From a virus (taxonomy: Duplodnaviria > Heunggongvirae > Uroviricota > Caudoviricetes), in the IMG/VR virus record IMGVR_UViG_2703718845_000002, positions 1 through 42,999 of that record: a stretch of DNA of 42,999 bases; one strand, 5' to 3'. Positions within the stretch are counted from its first letter, which is position 1. Each line of letters begins with the position of its first letter. The position numbers and the translations under genes are program-made. Below are positions 1 through 40,530 of this stretch, piece after piece. The notes under the pieces are model-generated. The model was not told where the DNA came from. It was given only the letters and a program-made list of their open reading frames with translations, and searched no databases.

Positions 1-288
1 TTAGAGGACAACAGCCCCAGCAAACTCTTCAGCTTGCATAAGTTGCTGCTCAGCCTGTTCTGTCCACGGCTTTGATGATGAAGCGTCCAGAGTTACCGCA
101 TACTCTCCTGCGTTAACTTTCGCCGCATCATTATATCGAACAGATACTGAGGCTTTAACTTGACCTGCATCATCCTGCCTGACGCTTTCTACTGAGTAAA
201 TGAGGTCAATATTGATATCCTTTTCACACAGAAATCCTCCGAGATAATAAATCTGTACAGTTTTTACTGCTGATAATTTAAATGACAT
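1..288 (-). CDS. Hypothetical protein immediately downstream of tail fiber gene
   Basis: ATG at 288 with AAGGA-type SD directly after the tail fiber stop (298..300); stop at 1..3; 95 aa, no recognisable motif. Confidence 0.45.
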   Translation of the reverse strand: MSFKLSAVKTVQIYYLGGFLCEKDINIDLIYSVESVRQDDAGQVKASVSVRYNDAAKVNAGEYAVTLDASSSKPWTEQAEQQLMQAEEFAGAVVL

Positions 289-297
289 AATGATTCC

Positions 298-2859
298 TTA
301 CGCAGGTAAGTAGTATTTTTCGCCATAAATAAGCTTGCACAGACTGAATGCCGCTGCATCTGCGCCAGCCTTGTAACTGACGGTATAGCCGAGGTCATTC
401 GGGTGGTTGAAATTAGGTGAGTTGAAAAGGGCTGACCATCCGTGTACCTCCACTCCCTGTTTGAACCAGGGGATTTCAGCTTCCAGTACAAATGCGGATT
501 TCTTCCGTGCTGTGGCTCGCGCCATGCTGTTATAGAGGCCAAACCGCACATCACCAACAACTTCAATACCACTCCCTGACCAGTCGGACTCCACAAATGA
601 CCGTGACGGTGGAGGATCGAGTACTTCCTCAATAATGCTGTCCAGATTAATTTGCTGAATAGTGGTATAAATCAGGCCAGAGACCGGAATATTTTCTGCC
701 ACAGTAATAGTGTTACGATCCGCAGAAATGCCGGTAATTGTGTAGTCGCCTGCATTGCTGCCGCCCACCCTCAATTTATGGCCAATTCGCAGAACCTGAC
801 CGCCCCAGCTGGTCGCTGCATTTCCTGTATCGTATGAGAACGCGGTGCTATGGATAGTATTGCTGGAAGAATCAAATGTGAAGTTGCCCGTAACATTGAA
901 AGTCCTCACAGGCCAGACAACATTCAGATCGCCAAGCGTGATGTTATTAACATTAGTGCTTTCCACATTATTATGGGGAGTTGTACAAACAATCACGATT
1001 GCGCCTTTTGCCGTGCACATATCAATTATGTTCTCAAGCTCTCCCTGCTGTTTCGGAAAGGTTCTTCCCCTGTTAAAGTTTCCTGGCGGGGCATCATTCA
1101 TACCCCCTACAATCAGAACGAAATCAGGCCAGTCGTCAGAGTTGGCACTGGTAAAATAGGGGGAGTTTTGTAGCTGTGCGGGAAACTGCTGTAATGCCTG
1201 ACCAATTATGCACTGATTGTCGTCGATAAACTCAAATTCCCCATACGGCGATAAGTATTTTTTCATCGCCTCAATAAATAGCGTATTCGGTGCAAAAGGC
1301 GCCCCCGGACCCCCGCCATCTGTTGACCCCGCGCCTAATCCTACCGACGAACCCGTTGATGTGAAGATAAGTCGTTTTTTTGTGACAGTTCTTACACCAT
1401 TGCTAAACGAAATTTTACCGAATGGCGAAGTATAAGCCGCTGTACCATCACCAATGAGTTTTATACGGAGCTTATCGTAGGGATCGGTAATGGCGCTTTG
1501 CAGGGTGGTGACATCACTTTTCAGGTTCAGAATGTCTGTGGTCGGATCGCCTGAGAGCAAAAGTTTGAAATTGTTAACGGGAGAACCACGATACTGAACC
1601 GTAACAGGTTTCGCTGCCTGCAGTTCGCCGCCAGTAAGCGCTGTGTTCGCCCCTTTGAATAAGTTACGCGTGACTGTGTTACCGTACATGTCGGTGATGA
1701 CAAGAGTCATAGCACCTGTATTTGCAGCAACCGGCTCAAAAGTAAGCTGAGTTCCATCTCCAAGTAACCCGGGAATTGTTAATGCTACTGAGTTAGGACT
1801 GGTAGCATCGCTGGTAACAGTTGCCTTTGAATAACCATTAAGTACACGGCTTCTGTCAGCCGGGTAGGTCAGCATCCGAAAATCTGCTGATGCAAAATTG
1901 AATTTAACGAGATACGTATATCCGGCTATCAAATCGCCCGCAGCGACGCTGGTCCCGTTATTTTGCTTAATCTGCCTTGCCGTGCCACCATTAACGGAAA
2001 GAGTTGGCGTGCGGGTTGTATTAGTGGCGCTTGGCGTAAAAAGAAAGACACGATCAGACGCAACAATTCCAGGAATTGCAGATGCGGTACCGGAATAGGC
2101 ATCTCCAGTACTAGCAACGCCAGACAATAACGCTACGCTATTTAATTCAAGCGTGGAAATTCTTGACGCAAGTTCAGCAGCTACTGGGCCGGATGCCACA
2201 AGGACAAAATTGTTAGCAGTCCCAGTGCGGAATTCCATCAGTGCGGGCTGATTGAGAAGCAACTCATTCCCAACTAAAGCTGCATTATTTTGTTTCTGTA
2301 TTGCCCGAGTAACCGAGTTCCCCCTGGCATCTGTCACGGTAACGCTAACAGCCGCCGTATTCAAAATAGGAGACAGGAAATAAATCAAACTGCCATCCAC
2401 TAATAATCCGGGGATAGTGATAGCAATGGTATTAGCCGCACCGCTACTCACAGCTGTAGCAGACTGGTAACCCATTGGCATTGCGGATGGCATTTTTCGT
2501 CCGGTTGGCTGCAACGTTCCGCCAACGTTCATGACCTCGATCGCGAGGGCGCTGTCATCCGGGCTGCGATAATAAGTAGTGCTCCCCTCGGGGATATTCG
2601 CGATATCCGCCTGCGCCGCTGCCAGGGTCATGTACTGCCGGCTGAGAGGGATCAGGTTCTGCCGCGTCTCTTCGACAACTTTATCCCCTTCCACCTTCAT
2701 TCCATCTACGGTGTAGTGCTCACCGCCGAGGCGATCGGTGTAGGTCAGGTCGGGACCGGTGACAACCTTATCCAGCATGGCGCCAGCATAAACTGCGTCC
2801 CGGATATCAGTGCTGGGCACCGGGTTGTCGGTTGGAGTTGGTAACGGTACTTCTGCCAT
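298..2859 (-). CDS. Tail fiber / receptor-binding protein with internal ~85-aa duplication and C-terminal SGNH/GDSL-like hydrolase domain
   Basis: 853 aa ORF, ATG at 2859; two repeated segments (TIPGLLVDGS...TVTDARGNSVTR and TIPGLLGDGT...VITDMYGNTVTR); C-terminal region has GGMND and HPNDLGY motifs consistent with SGNH blocks III and V; last large gene of the tail module. Confidence 0.7.
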   Translation of the reverse strand: MAEVPLPTPTDNPVPSTDIRDAVYAGAMLDKVVTGPDLTYTDRLGGEHYTVDGMKVEGDKVVEETRQNLIPLSRQYMTLAAAQADIANIPEGSTTYYRSPDDSALAIEVMNVGGTLQPTGRKMPSAMPMGYQSATAVSSGAANTIAITIPGLLVDGSLIYFLSPILNTAAVSVTVTDARGNSVTRAIQKQNNAALVGNELLLNQPALMEFRTGTANNFVLVASGPVAAELASRISTLELNSVALLSGVASTGDAYSGTASAIPGIVASDRVFLFTPSATNTTRTPTLSVNGGTARQIKQNNGTSVAAGDLIAGYTYLVKFNFASADFRMLTYPADRSRVLNGYSKATVTSDATSPNSVALTIPGLLGDGTQLTFEPVAANTGAMTLVITDMYGNTVTRNLFKGANTALTGGELQAAKPVTVQYRGSPVNNFKLLLSGDPTTDILNLKSDVTTLQSAITDPYDKLRIKLIGDGTAAYTSPFGKISFSNGVRTVTKKRLIFTSTGSSVGLGAGSTDGGGPGAPFAPNTLFIEAMKKYLSPYGEFEFIDDNQCIIGQALQQFPAQLQNSPYFTSANSDDWPDFVLIVGGMNDAPPGNFNRGRTFPKQQGELENIIDMCTAKGAIVIVCTTPHNNVESTNVNNITLGDLNVVWPVRTFNVTGNFTFDSSSNTIHSTAFSYDTGNAATSWGGQVLRIGHKLRVGGSNAGDYTITGISADRNTITVAENIPVSGLIYTTIQQINLDSIIEEVLDPPPSRSFVESDWSGSGIEVVGDVRFGLYNSMARATARKKSAFVLEAEIPWFKQGVEVHGWSALFNSPNFNHPNDLGYTVSYKAGADAAAFSLCKLIYGEKYYLPA

Positions 2860-2945
2860 TGTGCATGTCGCCCTATAAAAGGCGCACGAAGCCCTCAGAA
2901 ATTAACCTGATGGTGTGCGCGAAGGTTGGTAATTACTGCTGTGTG

Positions 2946-5417
2946 TTACGGATAAATCGAGTCCGAATACTCTGTAAGGGAAAGAGTTTGAGTATCGTCA
3001 CCATTTGGCTTGGCGCTATCGACGCGCCAGATTGTGGAGTTCAGTTCCGAGTCGGTAGCGATGAAATACCGGCTTGGGTTTTGTACCGTGCTGCGGTCAT
3101 AAATATTCAGATCGAATGTGTCGGCTGCAGCCTGAAATGCTTTTGGCTTGCCGCTTACCGGATAAGCTCGCCAGCGCCCGCGGTAATTGCCGAGGCTGTC
3201 GGTCATCACTACCCACATATCGCCGAGTGAAAAGTCGATACGCTCTGACGTCGAGAACACATCCCCGGAGCGTCCGGTGATGTATCCAGTCTGCTGCGCG
3301 TTGTCGTACATGTCCGGACACTGAACCACCGTACCGCGCACCACCTGCGTCGACTCCAGCACTTTCACTGTCATGGTCAGGCGTGAGTAGAGGATTTTCC
3401 TCGCCTCAAGCCAGGCCCGATCGGTTGCCTGATTGGCGTTGCGGCAGCCGTCCAGGCTGATCTGCATCGCGTTAACAGTAGCGTCGGAAACTTCACTTAT
3501 TCCGGAGGTGCCCACGTTTAGGTATATGTAGGTCTTTTTGTTAGTTGAAGGGTCGACGTAGTCGAGCGTCACGCCGTCATACCCACCAGGTAAAGACATT
3601 TTCCATGACAACTTGTAATCTTCCCAGAACATATTCGAACGGGCGAAAACCGCATCTGGGTTAGAAACCCTTTCATCACGCCAGAATGTAAGAACATCAC
3701 CGATCCAGTTAAAACTAACGCGAGCTACGTTACAGATAGTCTGTATTCGCTCACCTAGCGGCTGATTTTCATCGGAAAATGTCCAGTCAAAATAACCAAG
3801 CTGAGCATCTGGCAGCGAGTCTTTAATGGCGTAAAGCGAAGGTAAATCAAGCCTGGATGGATCCTGTTTGCCAATGATCACCCACTCATGTAGTACGGCG
3901 TCAGCAAATGACCTGCTGGGCCGCAATGCAAAGTCAATGCCGCTTGACGTCCATGATATGACCTTCCTCTGCACCAGACAGTTATATTTACGATCTGACG
4001 CTACAGTCTGTGTTTCCGTCTGTCTGACAGTGACCCTGACAATTGTGTCATCGGTATATACTACGTTTTTACGGATGGTTACAGCATGCGCGCCGGACAA
4101 ATACAGTACTGAGTTGCTGGCCGAGTTATTGGTTCGCTCAGCTCTAAAGGCATAACGTCCAAAACCCGCCACAGGTGTTATTTTGTATGTCCGGTAAATG
4201 TAATCCTGATTGCCTCCATCGTTGTGCACGTTTACATCAATGCTCTCTTCGGTACCGGGTATCTGGTTGTTATCGGTGTCGACCTGCCACCATGTGATAC
4301 GGGCAGGCCCGTCATATCCGCCAGCTTCATTCGCGTAGAGGTGCACCCAAAGCTGATCACCAGGGAGCGCCGCAAAAAATGGCCCAACCGCAATAGTCGA
4401 ATACTGAGTCAGCGTGAAAAGAGTGCTGTTTACCGTGGCGTCTGCTGGCAATCCCTCAAAGTCTGGACCAGACAAATAGTTAAACCAAAACTCATAGAAT
4501 TGTTGCGGATCGATAAGTGTCCCATCATCTGATAGCGCAGAGTTAAACAAACTAGCAGATACATTGATGTTTTTTGTTACCAGCCCACTGGCTGTATTAT
4601 ATGACACATTTACAGTGATAGTGACCGAAAATGGTTTTGGAGAGTCATAGAAAACATCAAACTCATTTTGTTTTTCAATTTTTGCATAAAACTGGCCTCC
4701 AGCGAAACTACCAGCCAGCAAATTATTCGTCGTGGCTTGATTAACGATATTTGATGTCTGCTCGTTGGTGCCAGGAAGCTCCTGCCCATCAACATCGTCA
4801 AAGGCATATCCCTGAATAATCTCTGGGATTACCGTGCCTGGATGATAAACTTCATAGCTGGCGCCGGCCATAGCTACCAGAGAAGATTCGGAATAACGTA
4901 CTGATGAAATATTGTAGTGTCCATAGCCTATCTCCATCCACTCTGTAACCATTTTATTATTACTGATGTATTCAAACATCGATTCCTGTATGAGGTCTGG
5001 ATAGGCTCGTACTTGACCATAAATATTCGGTCTCCCTTTATATAGACGGGCCCGGTTAGTCTGCTGGGTGACATCATTGTTAGGCGACTCACCAGTTGCA
5101 ACAGAAACGCCTCCGGATTTTGGTGCAAGACCGAGCAATTTCATTGCGCCAGAGAGAATTTTTGTGACCGGTCGTAATATGGTGTTGATCAGTTTCCCTA
5201 CCCCACCCTCTGGCTGATCGAATATAAGGACTACATCATTTCTGCACAGCGGATAAGTTATCTCGAAGTCGTCATCAAGTTCTCTGCCGTTAAGCTTAAC
5301 TACCACATCATTGTGCAAATTCAGAGAATCAAGTAACTCAGCTAGCGGCGTTCCTTCCTCCGCAACTCCACGCTGCTTTGGCGCGCCAGGAAGGCGCTGT
5401 AATTCATATCGAACCAT
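2946..5417 (-). CDS. Central tail fiber / host specificity protein (lambda J-like position)
   Basis: Large ORF after the K-like gene; track start at 5495 is GTG, in-frame ATG at 5417 has a GGAG SD and overlaps the upstream stop (5404..5406). Confidence 0.7.
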   Translation of the reverse strand: MVRYELQRLPGAPKQRGVAEEGTPLAELLDSLNLHNDVVVKLNGRELDDDFEITYPLCRNDVVLIFDQPEGGVGKLINTILRPVTKILSGAMKLLGLAPKSGGVSVATGESPNNDVTQQTNRARLYKGRPNIYGQVRAYPDLIQESMFEYISNNKMVTEWMEIGYGHYNISSVRYSESSLVAMAGASYEVYHPGTVIPEIIQGYAFDDVDGQELPGTNEQTSNIVNQATTNNLLAGSFAGGQFYAKIEKQNEFDVFYDSPKPFSVTITVNVSYNTASGLVTKNINVSASLFNSALSDDGTLIDPQQFYEFWFNYLSGPDFEGLPADATVNSTLFTLTQYSTIAVGPFFAALPGDQLWVHLYANEAGGYDGPARITWWQVDTDNNQIPGTEESIDVNVHNDGGNQDYIYRTYKITPVAGFGRYAFRAERTNNSASNSVLYLSGAHAVTIRKNVVYTDDTIVRVTVRQTETQTVASDRKYNCLVQRKVISWTSSGIDFALRPSRSFADAVLHEWVIIGKQDPSRLDLPSLYAIKDSLPDAQLGYFDWTFSDENQPLGERIQTICNVARVSFNWIGDVLTFWRDERVSNPDAVFARSNMFWEDYKLSWKMSLPGGYDGVTLDYVDPSTNKKTYIYLNVGTSGISEVSDATVNAMQISLDGCRNANQATDRAWLEARKILYSRLTMTVKVLESTQVVRGTVVQCPDMYDNAQQTGYITGRSGDVFSTSERIDFSLGDMWVVMTDSLGNYRGRWRAYPVSGKPKAFQAAADTFDLNIYDRSTVQNPSRYFIATDSELNSTIWRVDSAKPNGDDTQTLSLTEYSDSIYP

Positions 5418-34065: not shown

Positions 34066-34169
34066 GTGGTTAGCTCCTATCAACTCATGAGCAAACAATA
34101 CCACAAGTATTAAACATTGCAATACCGCTAGTATTTTTAAAATAAGAACATTGGTATTACTATTTGAAA
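34066..34169. promoter_or_regulatory. OR region: operators and divergent pR / pRM promoters
   Basis: Two 15-bp palindromic operators AATACCACAAGTATT (34097..34111) and AATACCGCTAGTATT (34121..34135), 24 bp centre to centre, between divergent cro and cI; a third degenerate site may lie near 34145..34160. Confidence 0.7.
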
Positions 34170-34880
34170 ATGGAAAAGAAAAAGACACTGACATCGGCTC
34201 AGATCGCTGACGCAGAAAGGCTGAAAGCCCTCTATGAAGCCAAGAAAAAAGAGCTTGGGATAACACAGCAATCAATAGCTGACATGCTAGACATATCTCA
34301 GGGGGGCGTTGGGCATTACTTGAATGGCAGGAATGCCCTTAATGCTGCCGTGGCTGCTGTTTTTGCCAGAGCCCTCCAGGTGGATGTCTCTGATTTTAGC
34401 CCCAGCCTTGCGAAAGAAATATCTGCAATGAGTGCTTCCGCTACATCGAATGCCAAGTATGCAGGCCAGTACACCCCAGGCATTAAATACCCTGTATTAA
34501 GCAAGATTCAGGCTGGGCATTGGTCGGAAGCGTGCGAGCCGTATGCACTTAAAGATATCGATCTATGGCTAGAATCAGACGCTCACATCCAGGGGGATGC
34601 GTTCTGGTTGTTGGTCGAGGGGGAATCCATGACTGCCCCGGTCGGGCTCAGCATACCAGAGGGTACCTACGTTTTGTTTGATACCGGCCGAGAGCCAGTA
34701 AATGGCAGCCTTGTGATCGCAAAGCTATCCGAATCAAACGAAGCGACATTCAAAAAGCTGATTATTGATGGGGGCCAGAAGTACCTGAAGGGCTTAAACC
34801 CTCAATGGCCATTGGTTCCCATCAATGGGAATTGCCGGATCATTGGTGTGGCTGTAGAAACTAAGTTGAGACTTGTGTGA
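34170..34880 (+). CDS. cI: CI repressor (HTH plus LexA/S24-like autocleavage domain)
   Basis: MEKKKTLTSAQIADAERLKALYEAKKKELGITQ and C-terminal GESMTAP ... FKKLIIDGGQKYLKGLNPQWP parallel lambda CI; track start 34164 is TTG, first ATG at 34170. Confidence 0.9.
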   Translation: MEKKKTLTSAQIADAERLKALYEAKKKELGITQQSIADMLDISQGGVGHYLNGRNALNAAVAAVFARALQVDVSDFSPSLAKEISAMSASATSNAKYAGQYTPGIKYPVLSKIQAGHWSEACEPYALKDIDLWLESDAHIQGDAFWLLVEGESMTAPVGLSIPEGTYVLFDTGREPVNGSLVIAKLSESNEATFKKLIIDGGQKYLKGLNPQWPLVPINGNCRIIGVAVETKLRLV

Positions 34881-34981
34881 TCAGCAGCATGCCGCGGACG
34901 TACAGGAAGCATGGGTAGTCGGTAGTGGACTGACAAGGTGTTTGGGTGATGAGAAGATAGCAATAACTTAGAGGCTTAAAT

Positions 34982-35746
34982 GTGATCAGAATAGGAAGGT
35001 TACTACCTGGCGGCATTGCAATTGACGAAGGGCAACATCACCCGATAAAGGGCGTTGCTCTTTTGATAAAAGAAAATAGCGAACCAGAAGAGATTGTTGT
35101 TTTTGCAAAAGAAATTTCTTCCAGGAGCATTTCTATAGAAATAACCTGCGCAGCCTTGGGAAGAGCTCTATCCCTGCCTATACCCGAGCCAGTACTACTG
35201 TTTGACAGCTCAAACAAAGCATTTTTTGGTAGTGTTGATGCTACCTATCCGAGTTTCATGAAGTATGTTTCTAACTCTTCAGATCAGGCCGTTTCTGATG
35301 CTTTGGCATCATGGCCGTTATTGAAAAAAGCTAGCTATTTTGATGAGTGGATTGCGATGGATGACCGTCACAACGGAAATTTGCTTTTCAATGGTGATGG
35401 TTTCTTCCTGATAGACCATGAATCGGCAATTCCCCAAGGTCTTGCCCCTGACCTTTTCGGGATAGATTATTACTCCAATCAATTGCTGCAGGTAGCAACT
35501 TACATACTCGATAGAAGTAATGATATAGCCGTTCAGATGATGGCAAATGAGGCGAGAGCTTGGACCATGTCTTGCAAGAGTAACACCCTAACGCTATTAG
35601 ATGGAGAGATATCCGAAACAGTTCAAGGTAAAGAGAAAAATCAAATAATGTCTTTCCTTTCATCTAGAATTGAGTTACTAGGAGACATTCTTTATGATCA
35701 AATCAAGCCCCAACAAACACAGATGATATACGATGCTAAATCTTGA
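34982..35746 (+). CDS. Kinase-like protein (HipA/CtkA-like or APH-like catalytic motifs), first gene of rex-position cargo operon
   Basis: GTG start with AGAGG SD 9 nt upstream, no in-frame ATG nearby; 254 aa; AT-rich; motifs VVFAKEI, MDDRHNGNLLF (D-x-H-x-x-N) and FFLIDHES. Confidence 0.6.
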   Translation: MIRIGRLLPGGIAIDEGQHHPIKGVALLIKENSEPEEIVVFAKEISSRSISIEITCAALGRALSLPIPEPVLLFDSSNKAFFGSVDATYPSFMKYVSNSSDQAVSDALASWPLLKKASYFDEWIAMDDRHNGNLLFNGDGFFLIDHESAIPQGLAPDLFGIDYYSNQLLQVATYILDRSNDIAVQMMANEARAWTMSCKSNTLTLLDGEISETVQGKEKNQIMSFLSSRIELLGDILYDQIKPQQTQMIYDAKS

Positions 35747-36614
35747 TCAGCTTCTTAAGTCAGCTCCTGCTATGCCTGCAACATCAGGGCGCTGGGCATC
35801 TGTTTATCTTGAACCAATGATCGGCTCAGGAGAGCGGCTCACGGTAGCAGTTGCCACGATAACATCATCTGGTGAAATTTTAGTTAAGCCGGCAATCAGA
35901 AAAGAAGTTATAGAAGCTATGTATGGCTTCAAAGCACCAGCATTTATCAATGTGGTTGATCTGATTTTGTCGAGTTTGAAGTTGCATCTGGCTGCTAAGG
36001 GGGATTTCGTATCATGGCATCCTCCAGTTACAGGCGTCACTATAAGCGCCGTAAGGAATGCTGCGTCATCAAGCCCTGTTGGCATACTCCGCCAAGCGGT
36101 ATCATTGTCATCGAGTTTGTCATCACTCCTTGAGGCTGAAGAAGATTCCGATGGGTTGCCAGCTAAGCAATCAAGAACTAAAGACAGGTGGCCAATTCAA
36201 ATCTTTGATGCGGTTATCAGCGCTGACGGACGCAGGGATATTTTTTTCAATAGAAGCTTCACCTTTAGTGATGGACACAGACCGGCTAAAATTTTCTATC
36301 TAAGCGATCATGCAGCTATCAACACCGGAAAACTGTTACCCCACAACTTGAATGAGCAGGTTAAGGATGGAAAAGCAAAAATATCTGACTTATCAATGAT
36401 AAAAAGGCAAGGCGATATTTTTCCAAGAGAAACTCATCAAATGATTATCTACAAACCGGAAGATGATAGCCCTGCATACAATGATAGGCACATAGCATCA
36501 ATAAATAGTGCGTACCTTTCTTTACAGGACTTGGCTAACACCTACGATGTATCAATCACTTCTGTAAGCACTGCCGAGCATGCAGCAAGGTTAATATTGC
36601 AAACTGCAGCATAA
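35733..36614 (+). CDS. Unknown partner protein of rex-position operon (tentatively DUF3037-like N-terminus)
   Basis: ATG at 35733 overlaps the 3' end of the kinase-like gene by 14 nt; 293 aa; AT-rich; N-terminal YLEPMIGSGERLTVAVA; no recognisable catalytic motif. Confidence 0.6.
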   Translation: MLNLDQLLKSAPAMPATSGRWASVYLEPMIGSGERLTVAVATITSSGEILVKPAIRKEVIEAMYGFKAPAFINVVDLILSSLKLHLAAKGDFVSWHPPVTGVTISAVRNAASSSPVGILRQAVSLSSSLSSLLEAEEDSDGLPAKQSRTKDRWPIQIFDAVISADGRRDIFFNRSFTFSDGHRPAKIFYLSDHAAINTGKLLPHNLNEQVKDGKAKISDLSMIKRQGDIFPRETHQMIIYKPEDDSPAYNDRHIASINSAYLSLQDLANTYDVSITSVSTAEHAARLILQTAA

Positions 36615-36621
36615 CTTTTGA

Positions 36622-36645
36622 TCCGGCCACCGCGCCGGGTTTTTA
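36622..36645 (+). terminator. Rho-independent terminator ending the cI/cargo operon
   Basis: Plus-strand CCGGC-CACCGC-GCCGG followed by T5, 8 nt after the stop of the second cargo gene. Confidence 0.55.
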
Positions 36646-36650
36646 CTGCC

Positions 36651-36854
36651 CTACTCTTCCCTCAGCATCAGCACGTCCAGCGCCAACTCCACAGCCAGAT
36701 CGACCTGGTCTTCCTGCCACAACACCTGAATCATCTCTATCAGCGCCTCTCTTGAGGGCTCGCGCTTCTCAACCAGCAGTTGCATAACCACTATCCCGAT
36801 GACCTGCGCTATCTGCGGGTGCATTTCTGCGAAAAACTCATCCTCATTTGACAT
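36651..36854 (-). CDS. Small acidic protein, convergent to the cargo operon
   Basis: 67 aa, ATG at 36854 with AAAGGGG SD; pI strongly acidic (ending LMLREE); GC content like the phage backbone; promoter would lie in the OL region. Confidence 0.45.
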   Translation of the reverse strand: MSNEDEFFAEMHPQIAQVIGIVVMQLLVEKREPSREALIEMIQVLWQEDQVDLAVELALDVLMLREE

Positions 36855-36924: not shown

Positions 36925-36996
36925 CATACCTTTAGTATTTTTATTAAACATCATAATACTGGCGGTATTGATATAAAATAATACCGGGAGTATTAT
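36925..36996 (+). promoter_or_regulatory. OL region: three operators and pL promoter
   Basis: Operators CATACCTTTAGTATT (36925..36939), AATACTGGCGGTATT (36955..36969), AATACCGGGAGTATT (36980..36994), same consensus as OR; sigma70-like pL with -35 TTGATA (36968..36973), 17-bp spacer, -10 TATTAT (36991..36996). Confidence 0.7.
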
Positions 36997-37486: not shown

Positions 37487-37573
37487 CCGCGCATATCAGC
37501 GCACGAATTTAACTGAGCTATCAGGCAGCCAATACGGTGCCGGGATTCTTACAACCAAATTTCAGGGGAAACC

Positions 37574-38545
37574 ATGAGCGAAATAATGGATTTAGTCGTC
37601 ATCGAGAAAAAGAACGCGATGGCGGTTTTCACCAATAACGACCAACTCGATCCGCTTATCGAAGCGATCGAAAAAGAGGCTCGCAGTCTGGTGCCGGACG
37701 TGACCACCAAAAAAGGCCGCGATGCTATCGCATCCATGGCTCACAAGGTCGCGCGCTCTAAAACCTACATCGACAACGCAGGTAAAGCCCTGGTCGCTGA
37801 GCTGAAGGCGCTGCCAAAGCAGATTGATGAAAGCCGCCGCGTTGTCCGTGAGCGTCTCGATGCACTGAAAGATGAAGTGCGTCGCCCGTTGACCGAATGG
37901 GAGGCTGAGCAGGAACGCATTAAGGCCGAAGAAGCCATGAACGCCCTTCACGTCGAAGCACTGGCCATGAATGAAGAGTTCGATCGGCAGCTGGCAGCTC
38001 GGATTGAGTCTGACCACGAAATGGCCATGCTGATGAATGACGCTTTCGACCGAGAGCAGGCAGATAAAGCAGCTGAGGCTGAGCGCCAGCGCATTGCCCA
38101 TGAAGAAGAAATTAAGCGAATGGCAGCCGCCGCAGCAGCCCGAGAAGTTGAGCAGCGCGCACAGCGTGAACGTGAAGAAGCGGCGCATCGCGAAGCTGTG
38201 TTGAAAGCACAAGCTGAGCAGGCAGAGCGAGATCGCATTGCAGCCGAGAAGAAAGCTGAGGCTGACAAGCAGGCCGCTATCGAAGCGGAGCGCCGCAAAG
38301 CTCAGGAAGAAGCCGATCGCATCCGCCGCGAGGCAGAGCAACGCGAACAGGCCCGCCTGGCTGAGGAGAAACGTAAAGCCGATGAGCAGGCTCGCCGCGA
38401 AGCCGACGTTAAGCACCGCAAGGCTGTAGGCACTGAAATCGTCAAAGCTCTTCTGGCCAATACCAGCCTTACTCGGGATCAGGCTATCGAGGTGCTTACA
38501 GCGGTTAAAGACGGCCGCATTCCCCATACCGGTATCAGTTACTGA
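37574..38545 (+). CDS. Coiled-coil protein with E/R/A/K-rich repetitive central region
   Basis: 323 aa, ATG at 37574 with GGGGAA SD; central 150 aa is highly charged low-complexity helix (AEAERQRIAHEEEIKRMAAAAAAREVEQRAQREREEA...); in the kil/cIII position upstream of gam. Confidence 0.6.
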   Translation: MSEIMDLVVIEKKNAMAVFTNNDQLDPLIEAIEKEARSLVPDVTTKKGRDAIASMAHKVARSKTYIDNAGKALVAELKALPKQIDESRRVVRERLDALKDEVRRPLTEWEAEQERIKAEEAMNALHVEALAMNEEFDRQLAARIESDHEMAMLMNDAFDREQADKAAEAERQRIAHEEEIKRMAAAAAAREVEQRAQREREEAAHREAVLKAQAEQAERDRIAAEKKAEADKQAAIEAERRKAQEEADRIRREAEQREQARLAEEKRKADEQARREADVKHRKAVGTEIVKALLANTSLTRDQAIEVLTAVKDGRIPHTGISY

Positions 38546-38552
38546 GGTGCTT

Positions 38553-38837
38553 ATGAACGCATACCGCGCATACGACGCTATCGAAGAAAGGAAATGGGCT
38601 GAACAGTCGCTAACCGAAGAGAAGCAAAAGTGGATTGACGATCGGGCGCAGGAAATTATCGACGCCCTGCCGAAAGAGCCGTCAGGCCTGTTCCGCTTCT
38701 CTGTGCCGATGGACAAAAGCCCATACGAAGGCCTCCGCAGCGATGCAGCTGGCGAGGCATATAACGATCTCATCTCGGCAGTAGCTTATGCCCAGGCGGA
38801 ATATGACTGGGACCACCGCACCGGCTGCCCGTTTTAA
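38553..38837 (+). CDS. Gam-like host nuclease inhibitor
   Basis: Track start 38547 is GTG; ATG at 38553 with GAGGTG SD gives MNAYRAYDAIEERKW..., resembling lambda GamS MNAYYIQDRLEAQSW...; immediately upstream of bet. Confidence 0.55.
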   Translation: MNAYRAYDAIEERKWAEQSLTEEKQKWIDDRAQEIIDALPKEPSGLFRFSVPMDKSPYEGLRSDAAGEAYNDLISAVAYAQAEYDWDHRTGCPF

Positions 38838-38852
38838 CTTTGGGGAATAACA

Positions 38853-39698
38853 ATGGCTAACGAACTTGTGATTACAGCCGGCTCTCTTGCTGAGAGAGGC
38901 ATTGACGGCGCTACCTGGAGCGCCCTCAAAAACAGTATTTACCCTGGCGCCAAGGATGAGTCGGTGATGATGGCACTGGACTACTGCCGGGCCAGAAACC
39001 TTGATCCGCTTCTTAAGCCCGTTCATCTGGTGCCAATGAGCGTTAAGGACTCGAAGTCGGGAAAAAGCGAGTGGCGCGATGTGGTTATGCCTGGCATCGG
39101 GCTTTATCGGATTCAGGCCGATCGCTCCGGTTCTTACGCTGGCGCAAAAGAACCAGAGTTCGGCCCGGACGTCACTCTGACGCTTACCGGTATTGAAGTG
39201 ACCGTGCCTCAATGGTGCAAGTACACGGTCAGCAAGCGCATGCCCAGCGGGGAGATCGTCGAATTCAGCGCGAAAGAATACTGGGTTGAGAACTACGCAA
39301 CCGCCGGCCGCGACACTACCGCGCCAAACGCAATGTGGAAAAAGCGCCCCTATGGCCAGCTGGCGAAGTGTGCCGAGGCTCAGGCTCTGCGTAAGGCGTG
39401 GCCTGAAATTGGCCAGCAGCCCACTGCCGAAGAGATGGAAGGTAAAACACTGGAAGTTGATGCGCGTGACGTAACGCCGCGAACCACGACAGAGGCGCTC
39501 CCCCTGGTGGCCAGTGAGGAAACGTTGCAGGCAATTACCGACCTCCTGACGTCCCTGAATAAGGACTGGGAGCAGGACTTCCTGCCTCTGTGCAGCAACA
39601 TCTTCAAGCGTGACATTTTCCAGGCATCACAACTCACCGAAGAAGAAGCGCAGAAAGGCTTTAGCTTCCTCCAGAAAAAAGCGCAGGTGGCAGCATGA
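38853..39698 (+). CDS. bet: Bet / RecT-family single-strand annealing protein
   Basis: C-terminus [40 protein letters not shown] closely parallels lambda Bet; ATGA overlap with exo. Confidence 0.85.
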
Positions 39699-40375
39699 CA
39701 CCAGAAATTATCCTCGAACGAACTGGCATTGACGTTACCCGCGTTGAACAGGGAGATGAATCCTGGCACCGCTTACGCCTGGGCGTGATCACCGCCTCGG
39801 AAGTCCATAACGTCATTTCGAAGCCGAGATCAGGCACCAAGTGGACTGACATGAAAATGTCTTATTTCCACACGCTGCTCGCAGAGGTATGCACCGGCGC
39901 GGCGCCGGAAGTTAACGCCAAGGCGCTGGCCTGGGGAAAACAGTATGAGGCCGACGCTCGAACCCTGTTTGAGTTCACCACCGACGTGAAGGTAACGGAG
40001 TCACCGATCCTTTTCCGTGACGAAGGTATGCGCACCGCCTGCTCACCAGACGGCCTGTGCAGTGATGGCCGCGGCCTTGAGCTGAAATGCCCTTTCACCT
40101 CTCGCGACTTCATGAAGTTCCGGCTTGGCGGCTTCGAGGCTATCAAATCCGCCTACATGGCCCAGGTGCAATTCAGCATGTGGGTAACCAGGAAGGACGC
40201 CTGGTATTTCGCGAATTATGACCCTCGCATGAAGCGAGAAGGCATTCATCACGTGGTTGTTGAGCGCGACGACAAATACATGTCCGACTTCAACGAAATG
40301 GTGCCGGAGTTCATCGAGAAGATGGACGAATCGCTGTCGGAGATCGGTTTCACCTTCGGGGAACAGTGGAAATGA
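39695..40375 (+). CDS. exo: Lambda exonuclease (Exo)
   Basis: [40 protein letters not shown]...GFTFGEQWK is near-identical in pattern to lambda Exo along its whole length. Confidence 0.9.
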
Positions 40376-40530
40376 AAACTAACCACGACGGAATCACCGT
40401 TGGAAGTATCACTCTTCCCTATTCCATCAATCGCCGGGGATGGATCGCCCCAAGCGGCGACGTTATCAAAAATCCATTAAAGGCTCAGCGGCTGGCTGAG
40501 CTGATGAACAGTAAGAAGGTGATGGCATGA
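40372..40530 (+). CDS. Small hypothetical protein (52 aa), not in supplied track
   Basis: ATG at 40372 overlapping the exo stop (ATGA) and TGA overlapping the methyltransferase ATG; [52 protein letters not shown]. Confidence 0.4.

Follow-up and report, generated by a model that had tools for sequence, protein, structure and literature searches.

A predicted HipA/CtkA-fold kinase and its partner in the cI-downstream slot of a lambdoid phage: a candidate defense module related to HipAD

Organization of the locus

We analyzed a 42,999-nucleotide stretch of Caudoviricetes DNA (IMG/VR record IMGVR_UViG_2703718845_000002, positions 1 to 42,999; hereafter the window) and focused on two overlapping open reading frames, ORF1 and ORF2, that lie directly downstream of a cI-type repressor gene. 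ORF1 encodes a predicted kinase of the HipA/CtkA fold and ORF2 its partner. Together they form a candidate anti-phage module related to DS-6, a kinase-based defense pair that has reportedly been renamed HipAD after Brenes and Laub 2025 (Cell Host Microbe).

A sequence-only reading of the same DNA had placed the two genes after cI, on the same strand and ahead of OL/pL, and the reading frames, operator palindromes and a pL-like promoter agree with this placement (Table 1). The start codons of ORF1 and ORF2 are backed by the N-termini of homologs (MIR[IV]GRL and MLNLD, respectively), and the genes overlap by 14 nt, so that the ORF2 start codon falls within the end of the first gene, as had been pointed out. 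RefSeq labels both ORFs of the identical pair in Escherichia coli ECCRA-119 as ‘hypothetical protein’, and the RefSeq equivalent of the repressor is WP_001548451.1, a ‘LexA family protein’.

This immunity type appears to use 15-bp palindromes of the form AATAC-N5-GTATT as operators. This pattern occurs six times in the window, against 0.76 matches expected by chance, and five of the six lie in the right (OR) or left (OL) operator region. Because OR and OL palindromes and the pL-like promoter flank the block, ORF1 and ORF2 are situated within the immunity region, which extends from OR to OL/pL. A consensus scan of the 101-nt gap between cI and ORF1 returned no promoter and no terminator. The hairpin and T-run that close the unit have a folding energy of −12.3 kcal/mol (z = −2.1). 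Equally good folding was obtained in 6 of 200 shuffles, which is modest support, and the hairpin at 36620–36641 is absent from the output of the consensus terminator scan.

Table 1. Features of the cI-downstream locus (positions in the window).
Feature	Position	Strand	Description
OR-side operator palindromes	34097–34135		Two exact copies of AATAC-N5-GTATT, at 34097 and 34121, between cro and cI
cI-type repressor	34170–34880	+	LexA/Peptidase_S24 family; directly upstream of the cassette
Exchangeable cassette	34916–36622	+	About 1.7 kb; junctions by alignment with prophages and phages that have the same flanks and other cargo
ORF1	34982–35746	+	254 amino acids (aa), GTG start; HipA_2/CtkA-like Ser/Thr kinase, predicted toxin
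Lys43 codon (VVFAKE)	35108–35110	+	Predicted ATP-binding lysine; invariant in 38 homologs
Catalytic loop D128-R-H-N-G-N133	35363–35380	+	D128, R129 and N133 invariant; D128 aligns with DS-6A D139
Asp145-His146 (LIDH)	35414–35419	+	Predicted metal-binding Asp, DFG equivalent; invariant
ORF2	35733–36614	+	293 aa, ATG start; kinase partner, predicted antitoxin/sensor, positional analog of HipD
ORF2 motif E27-P-x-x-G-S32-G-E34-R35	35811–35837	+	Most conserved motif of the family; each residue 86–99% in 88 members
Hairpin and T-run terminator	36620–36644	+	Hairpin 36620–36641; closes the cI-ORF1-ORF2 unit
Conserved 67-aa gene	36651–36854	−	Convergent with ORF2, between the terminator and OL
OL operators	36925, 36955, 36980		Two exact AATAC-N5-GTATT copies and one copy with one mismatch
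pL-like promoter TTGATA-17-TATTAT	36968–36996	+	Overlaps the OL palindromes (OL/pL region 36925–36996)

The pair occupies an exchangeable, low-GC cassette

The two genes reside in an acquired, exchangeable cassette with sharp junctions. The GC content of the cassette is 42.4%, compared with a window mean of 52.4% (standard deviation 3.5), the lowest value among all 1.7-kb stretches in the window. At third codon positions it falls to 37%, against 52–69% in cI and the recombination genes. The left junction, at about 34916, lies 35 nt past the cI stop codon; a prophage of E. coli SUISSEKPC3NDM5 is identical to the window up to this point and then diverges. The right junction, at about 36622, lies at the foot of the terminator hairpin, where the alignment to all relatives resumes. 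The higher AT content noted in the sequence-only reading and the acquisition proposed there are thus borne out, the latter by the sharp junctions together with the lowest GC content in the window.

Comparison of phages with the same flanks reveals a slot with interchangeable cargo. In Klebsiella phage ST101-KPC2phi6.1, RexA and RexB are encoded between cI and the same terminator and 67-aa gene, so the earlier description of the position as the rexAB slot of lambda holds in the literal sense. The SUISSEKPC3NDM5 prophage shares cI, cro, cII and the replication genes with the window, cI being identical, and its slot (3488–4989) contains a DUF6932 protein (PADLOC PDC-M63A, E = 2.5e-11) and an overlapping gene for a 305-aa protein that has no family match in Pfam or PADLOC scans. 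These two genes represent a further candidate defense pair for the same slot. In Klebsiella phage 2 LV-2017 (KY271396) the slot is nearly empty and lacks the kinase pair. At about positions 4975–5005 this phage retains the last ~27 nt of ORF2 (ATTGCAAACTGCAGCATAA...), aligned to 36596–36622 of the window, just before the shared terminator, and the remnant looks like the scar of a deleted or replaced cassette. The terminator itself is identical after rexAB and after the DUF6932 cargo in related phages. The hairpin and T-run that the sequence-only reading had seen after the pair are therefore present, but they belong to the conserved backbone and lie outside the cassette.

The cassette was found in 4 of 5,426 complete E. 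coli genomes. Its dispensability, swapping and rarity fit a moron rather than a core life-cycle gene. Four E. coli prophages are 99.9% identical to the window over the immunity region and cassette. Further downstream (37500–40400 in the window), these prophages, for example that of ECCRA-119, have RecE/RecT, and the window has a Bet/RecT-like gene and a lambda-exonuclease-like gene, as in Klebsiella phages. Such differing recombination genes beside a near-identical cassette indicate that the backbone around it is mosaic.

ORF1 is predicted to be a HipA/CtkA-fold kinase

Sequence and model together identify ORF1 as a kinase of the HipA/CtkA fold with an intact set of catalytic residues. ORF1 scores 25.5 bits against Pfam HipA_2, just under the gathering cutoff of 27, and matches the PADLOC model PDC-M66A with an E-value of 2e-6. 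Among 78 clusters of ORF1 homologs, most contain HipA_2 (PF20613), and several bear the name ‘HipA family kinase’. In an alignment of 38 homologs, K43, E53, D128, R129, N133, D145 and H146 are invariant. The kinase motifs flagged from the sequence alone, namely the lysine of VVFAKE, MDDRHNGN and IDH, are all included in this set. The LIDH motif also occurs in the HipA protein of phage PhiR5_1 and in most kinases of the family.

The AlphaFold2 (AF2) model of ORF1 has a mean predicted local distance difference test score (pLDDT) of 84.9 and a predicted template modeling score (pTM) of 0.83. A Foldseek search with this model returned CtkA as the best match, followed by HipA, the VPS34 kinase domain and HipT. 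Structure prediction, which had been suggested as a check, thereby yielded the expected kinase fold, in agreement with the proposed likeness to HipA and CtkA and with the presence of PF20613 in the family. Sequence searches of the PDB with the kinase gave weak matches to Bud32/RIO only.

Profile comparisons further connect ORF1 to the kinases of known defense pairs. For these comparisons, the sequences of DS-6A (kinase) and DS-6B (partner) were taken from the supplement of PMC13092281. The ORF1-family profile aligns with the DS-6 kinase at an hhalign probability of 97.5% (E = 5e-12), placing D128 on D139. PhiR5_1 HipA reaches 39.8 bits (E = 2e-13) with the hidden Markov model (HMM) of the ORF1 family. 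On the strength of these alignments, we regard ORF1 as homologous to the HipAD/DS-6/PDC-M66 kinase and as a distant member of that group.

ORF2 is the obligate downstream partner of the kinase

ORF2 is an obligate partner of ORF1, encoded downstream and overlapping it translationally. An ORF1-type kinase lies immediately upstream of an ORF2 homolog in 35 of 35 contexts, comprising all 10 that were individually inspected and all 25 IMG/VR loci. The inspected contexts derive from Pseudomonas, Proteus, Methyloglobulus, metagenomic phages and Alteromonas phage P24; here the kinase HMM matched with E-values between 1e-108 and 2e-32, and the stop and start of the two genes overlap in nine of the ten. 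Even kinases with only about 20% identity retain the pairing, whose range takes in Enterobacterales, Pseudomonas, Methyloglobulus and Alteromonas phage P24. A survey of homolog contexts, also suggested in the sequence-only reading, recovered accessory and immunity-region settings, among them 17 of the 25 viral loci, where a cI-like repressor in the same orientation lies just upstream. Some of the inspected pairs adjoin unrelated repressors.

To place the kinases relative to those encoded next to DUF3037 proteins, we compared both types in a small neighbor-joining tree. The three DUF3037-partnered kinases, from PhiR5_1, Novosphingobium and Pseudomonas, form a clade apart from ten ORF2-partnered kinases, with 15–25% identity between the clades. 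Separate kinase clades that match the type of partner indicate that kinase and partner diverged together.

Structural features of ORF2

The ORF2 protein matches phrog_21150, a family annotated as of unknown function, and no family in Pfam, NCBIfam or PADLOC. Its own family is large: a word-indexed search collected 44 clusters, and an exhaustive profile search at least 715 representative clusters (50% identity) at E ≤ 1e-3, with 528 at E ≤ 1e-10. Nearly all members are about 290 aa long.

The AF2 model of ORF2 (pLDDT 83, pTM 0.73) consists of an N-terminal domain (residues 1–128), a disordered linker (129–149) and a C-terminal domain (150–293). The most conserved motif of the family is situated on an exposed N-terminal β-hairpin loop between strands 17–26 and 36–44. 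Within it, P28, S32 and E34 are conserved at 95–99% across 88 members, with Ser32 at 95%.

The C-terminal domain adopts an α-β-β-β-α-β topology in the model, corresponding to the core fold of restriction endonucleases. The catalytic D...(D/E)xK signature of PD-(D/E)XK enzymes was looked for in the 88-member alignment, and no conserved acidic or lysine positions were found on β2 and β3 (residues 185–190 and 194–200). Since catalytic residues are absent from these strands, the nuclease-like domain is probably non-catalytic. Conserved charges are found elsewhere in the domain, at K214, K216 and D219, which lie on a helix, and at E236. We therefore liken the C-terminal domain to the inactive nuclease-like domains of the PD-(D/E)XK and XPF families, such as the ERCC1 central domain and FAAP24; it is probably an inactive fold of this kind, and its likely role is to bind protein or DNA. 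The possibility that ORF2 is an active nuclease was rejected, as the catalytic residues are missing from the alignment.

The ORF2 model also matches a DUF1828 protein in BFVD. The C-terminal region of DS-6B has been reported as DUF1829-like (HHpred 0.78), and the two observations together fit a shared C-terminal fold or ancestry. PDB sequence searches returned no solved relative of ORF2 or of HipD/DUF3037.

Comparison with known systems

Pairs of a HipA_2 kinase and a DUF3037 protein were listed as the candidate system PDC-M66 in PADLOC v2 (2023). DefensePredictor work validated the E. coli pair DS-6 as a phage defense system, and its kinase mutant D139A lost defense (PMC13092281). In the Retron-Sda1 operon, deletion of the kinase abolished defense and deletion of the DUF3037 gene was toxic (PMC12548924). 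HipAD protects against phage, with the kinase as the toxin and the DUF3037 partner as the antitoxin (PMC13092281, PMC12548924). Phage PhiR5_1 (GenBank PV340545) encodes a ‘HipA toxin’ and a ‘HipD antitoxin’ between cI, which they directly follow, and kil/gam/bet/exo; the kinase gene comes first, the proteins have 249 and 275 aa, and the genes overlap by 4 nt.

ORF1 and ORF2 resemble HipAD in several respects. The kinases are homologous and use the same catalytic aspartate (D128 in ORF1, D139 in DS-6A). Both systems encode kinase then partner in overlapping genes of similar size (254 and 293 aa, compared with 249 and 275 aa), and both are found directly after the cI gene of a lambdoid phage. 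A common toxin/antitoxin logic is likely, by analogy with the characterized members. In contrast to this shared architecture, the kinases of the two systems are only ~19–21% identical and fall into separate clades, ORF2 has no detectable similarity to DUF3037 or PDC-M66B, and the PADLOC v2 models would not call the ORF1/ORF2 pair.

The relationship to the HipBA and HipBST modules is limited to the kinase. ORF1 shares the PI3/4-kinase-like HipA fold and the catalytic residues of E. coli HipA and HipT, and the Foldseek matches include HipA (PDB: 3tpd, 3dnu) and HipT (PDB: 7wcf). Unlike HipA, which has ~440 aa, ORF1 has 254 aa and lacks the N-terminal subdomains, and the gene upstream of it is cI. 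Unlike either module, the pair has no upstream HipB-type helix-turn-helix (HTH) antitoxin and no HipS. Its partner is encoded downstream and is unrelated to HipB; neither ORF2 nor the scan of its family gave an HTH or HipB match.

This comparison bears on whether the pair could be a plain addiction or persistence module, which would stabilize the prophage or induce stress dormancy like chromosomal hipBA and would have no specific role against superinfection. The kinase fold and catalytic set do match HipA-type toxins, and obligate overlapping pairing is typical of toxin/antitoxin modules. However, the closest characterized relatives are validated defense systems, the slot otherwise holds rexAB, HipAD or a PADLOC candidate, and the HipB-like HTH antitoxin expected of such modules was not found. 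We therefore consider this explanation unlikely and favor an anti-phage function.

With lambda RexAB, the pair shares the slot, probably the expression logic, that is, co-transcription with cI in the lysogen, and the predicted outcome of abortive infection. It has no sequence or fold relation to RexA or RexB: searches of PADLOC, Pfam and PHROG gave no Rex match for either ORF, and position is the only common feature. The mode of action would also differ, as RexAB is membrane-depolarizing and the present system kinase-based. Helicobacter pylori CtkA (PDB: 3AKJ, 3AKK, 3AKL) is the best match of the ORF1 model (E = 2e-6, template modeling score ~0.5), and like CtkA, ORF1 is a compact HipA-like kinase without the HipA N-terminal domain. 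CtkA differs in being a secreted pro-inflammatory effector that has no such partner gene, and its identity to ORF1 is ~14%.

Proposed function of the ORF1/ORF2 cassette

Given the homology of ORF1 to the HipAD kinase, the obligate pairing with ORF2 and the position in a slot whose exchangeable cargo includes rexAB, HipAD and a PDC-M63-like pair, we favor, with a probability of about 60%, the reading that the cassette is a divergent sister lineage of HipAD, namely a prophage-borne anti-phage module of the kinase toxin/antitoxin type that acts by abortive infection. A role in phage exclusion, for which the sequence-only reading had also named the pair a candidate, is our best inference for it, drawn by analogy with these systems.

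In this scheme, ORF1 and ORF2 would be co-transcribed with cI from the maintenance promoter in the lysogen, as rexAB is in lambda. ORF2 would bind the kinase and keep it inactive. A superinfecting phage would then free or activate the kinase in one of two ways: ORF2 would sense a phage product or DNA, or ORF2 would be lost. The freed kinase would phosphorylate an essential host protein, possibly an aminoacyl-tRNA synthetase by analogy with HipA and HipT, and the cell would arrest before the phage completes its cycle. The pair would thus be delivered as a moron expressed with cI, shielding the lysogen from other phages.

Several observations weigh against this interpretation. With 25.5 bits, ORF1 misses the Pfam HipA_2 threshold of 27 bits, whereas DS-6A reaches 258 bits. 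The argument for co-transcription with cI is the absence of consensus signals in the intervening gap. For the ORF1/ORF2 lineage, we infer toxicity, neutralization, defense phenotype, trigger and kinase substrate from characterized relatives. The genomic contexts are not uniform either: 8 of the 25 viral loci have no cI-like match upstream, several of these contigs ending close upstream, and in one case the gene before the pair encodes a tyrosine integrase instead of a repressor (IMG/VR UViG 2667527506_000004, 1–3342).

The integrase-adjacent pair indicates that the cassette also uses an integrase-proximal accessory site, and it is relevant to the possibility of a phage life-cycle function, in which modification of a host or phage protein by the kinase would help to maintain lysogeny, time induction or alter host physiology (lysogenic conversion). 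Such a role would suit the likely expression of the pair together with cI in the immunity region, and it would suit the best structural match, CtkA, an effector kinase and not a toxin of a toxin/antitoxin module. Yet the cassette is dispensable, is exchanged between immunity regions that are otherwise identical, is rare among complete E. coli genomes, and also occurs beside integrase and with unrelated repressors. We judge a life-cycle function very unlikely and retain the abortive-infection reading.

The relationship between ORF2 and HipD is the second point at issue. None of 88 diverse ORF2-family members matched DUF3037 (PF11236) or PDC-M66B in the Pfam and PADLOC scans (E ≤ 0.1–1), and no other convincing family emerged; likewise, neither ORF2 itself nor 30 close relatives gave a DUF3037 match. 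As a positive control, DS-6B matched DUF3037 at 7.6e-24 and PDC-M66B at 3.8e-16 in these scans. The suspicion in the sequence-only reading that the partner recalls DUF3037-type proteins hence pointed to the right relatives, the HipAD systems, but ORF2 carries no detectable DUF3037 domain. HMMER cross-searches between ORF2-family and HipD-family HMMs were null in both directions, and the ORF2 family gave no hhalign match to DS-6B alone. When 88 ORF2 relatives were compared with 40 HipD relatives, hhalign gave a probability of 4.9% (E = 0.008) over 234 collinear columns. The score of 21.0 was judged unexceptional against column-shuffle controls, in which whole-length shuffles reached 19.0. Scores for the N- and C-terminal domains taken separately fall inside the shuffle ranges, and only the aligned length is unusual. 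Because the score was unexceptional against these controls, we do not claim homology between ORF2 and HipD, and the partner may be non-homologous and work differently.

If so, DUF3037 could have been replaced by an unrelated sensor or effector with a nuclease fold, and ORF2 would not be a HipD-like antitoxin but part of a mechanistically different system. The kinase might, for example, regulate a partner that binds or cuts DNA, or the partner might turn the kinase on upon sensing phage DNA. Against this stand the absence of canonical PD-(D/E)XK residues on β2 and β3 and the gene order, overlap, partner length and locus, all as in HipAD. The full-length collinear alignment of the ORF2 and HipD profiles, though non-significant, brings P-x3-[ST]-x-E into register, and the DUF1829-like C-terminus of DS-6B together with the DUF1828 match of ORF2 would fit shared ancestry. 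A different mechanism therefore seems improbable to us, and a divergent sister lineage of HipAD remains the preferred reading.

The same non-significant alignment positions P28, S32 and E34 of ORF2 on P14, T18 and E20 of the HipD family, which are invariant or near-invariant there. This correspondence is suggestive of a relation between the two families, but it is not proof. In HipD, the near-invariant Thr18 of the P-x-x-E-T-E-E motif falls under Ser32 of ORF2. A pseudosubstrate or phospho-switch role is conceivable for the loop. We tentatively extend this idea into a minority hypothesis, to which we assign a small but real chance: the ORF2 family would be a second, hitherto unrecognized class of regulatory partner for HipA_2-type defense kinases and not a divergent DUF3037, its S32 loop would occupy the kinase active site as a pseudosubstrate or phospho-switch, and its inactive nuclease-like C-terminal domain would free the kinase on detecting phage DNA or a phage protein.

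Relevance to defense-system surveys

The kind of system described here is known from PDC-M66 (2023) and from DS-6/HipAD and Retron-Sda1 (2025–2026). The sequence-only reading, which matched the pair to no named system and called it undescribed, overstated its novelty in this respect, as ORF1 is homologous to the kinases of those systems; its claim stands in part, for the lineage and the partner family: the partner family is unannotated, and current HMM libraries do not call the pair. Since Pfam, PADLOC v2 and NCBIfam miss the pair, with no match for the partner and a sub-threshold kinase, censuses of defense systems undercount the lineage.

The pair extends the validated HipAD/DS-6 family of defense kinases to a large sister lineage. 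It also provides a clean natural case of cargo exchange, in which rexAB, a PDC-M63-like pair or the present pair occupies the cI-downstream slot between identical flanks, with HipAD in the equivalent slot of another lambdoid phage. Furthermore, two very divergent partner families on homologous kinases offer a comparison that could reveal the features required for kinase control and phage sensing, candidates being the P-x3-[S/T]-x-E loop and the nuclease-like C-terminal domain. If the pseudosubstrate reading of the loop were true, both lineages would have a common mechanism, which could be addressed by single Ser/Thr mutants. The practical gain is modest, as the kind of system is known and its biochemistry here is deduced from sequence and model.

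Other features of the immunity region

The 67-aa minus-strand gene between the terminator and OL was missed by the sequence-only reading. Its acidic product begins with MSNEDEFFAEMHPQ and has no match in Pfam and PADLOC scans. The gene is kept at this position in Klebsiella phages and E. coli prophages regardless of the cargo in the slot, and it may be read from a promoter within the OL region, divergent from pL.

Within the 3′ end of ORF1, just before ORF2, lies a plus-strand sigma-70-like site, TTGAGT-17-TATGAT (35670–35698), which matches 9 of 12 consensus positions. The site is weak, and its scan score is no better than chance. Its location recalls that of pLIT, the internal promoter of lambda for rexB.

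Downstream of the immunity region, the early-left operon encodes a 323-aa protein (37574–38545, plus strand) with a long, highly charged central region rich in Ala, Glu, Arg and Lys that is probably a coiled coil. Its homolog in one Klebsiella phage is annotated as a ‘membrane protein involved in colicin uptake’.

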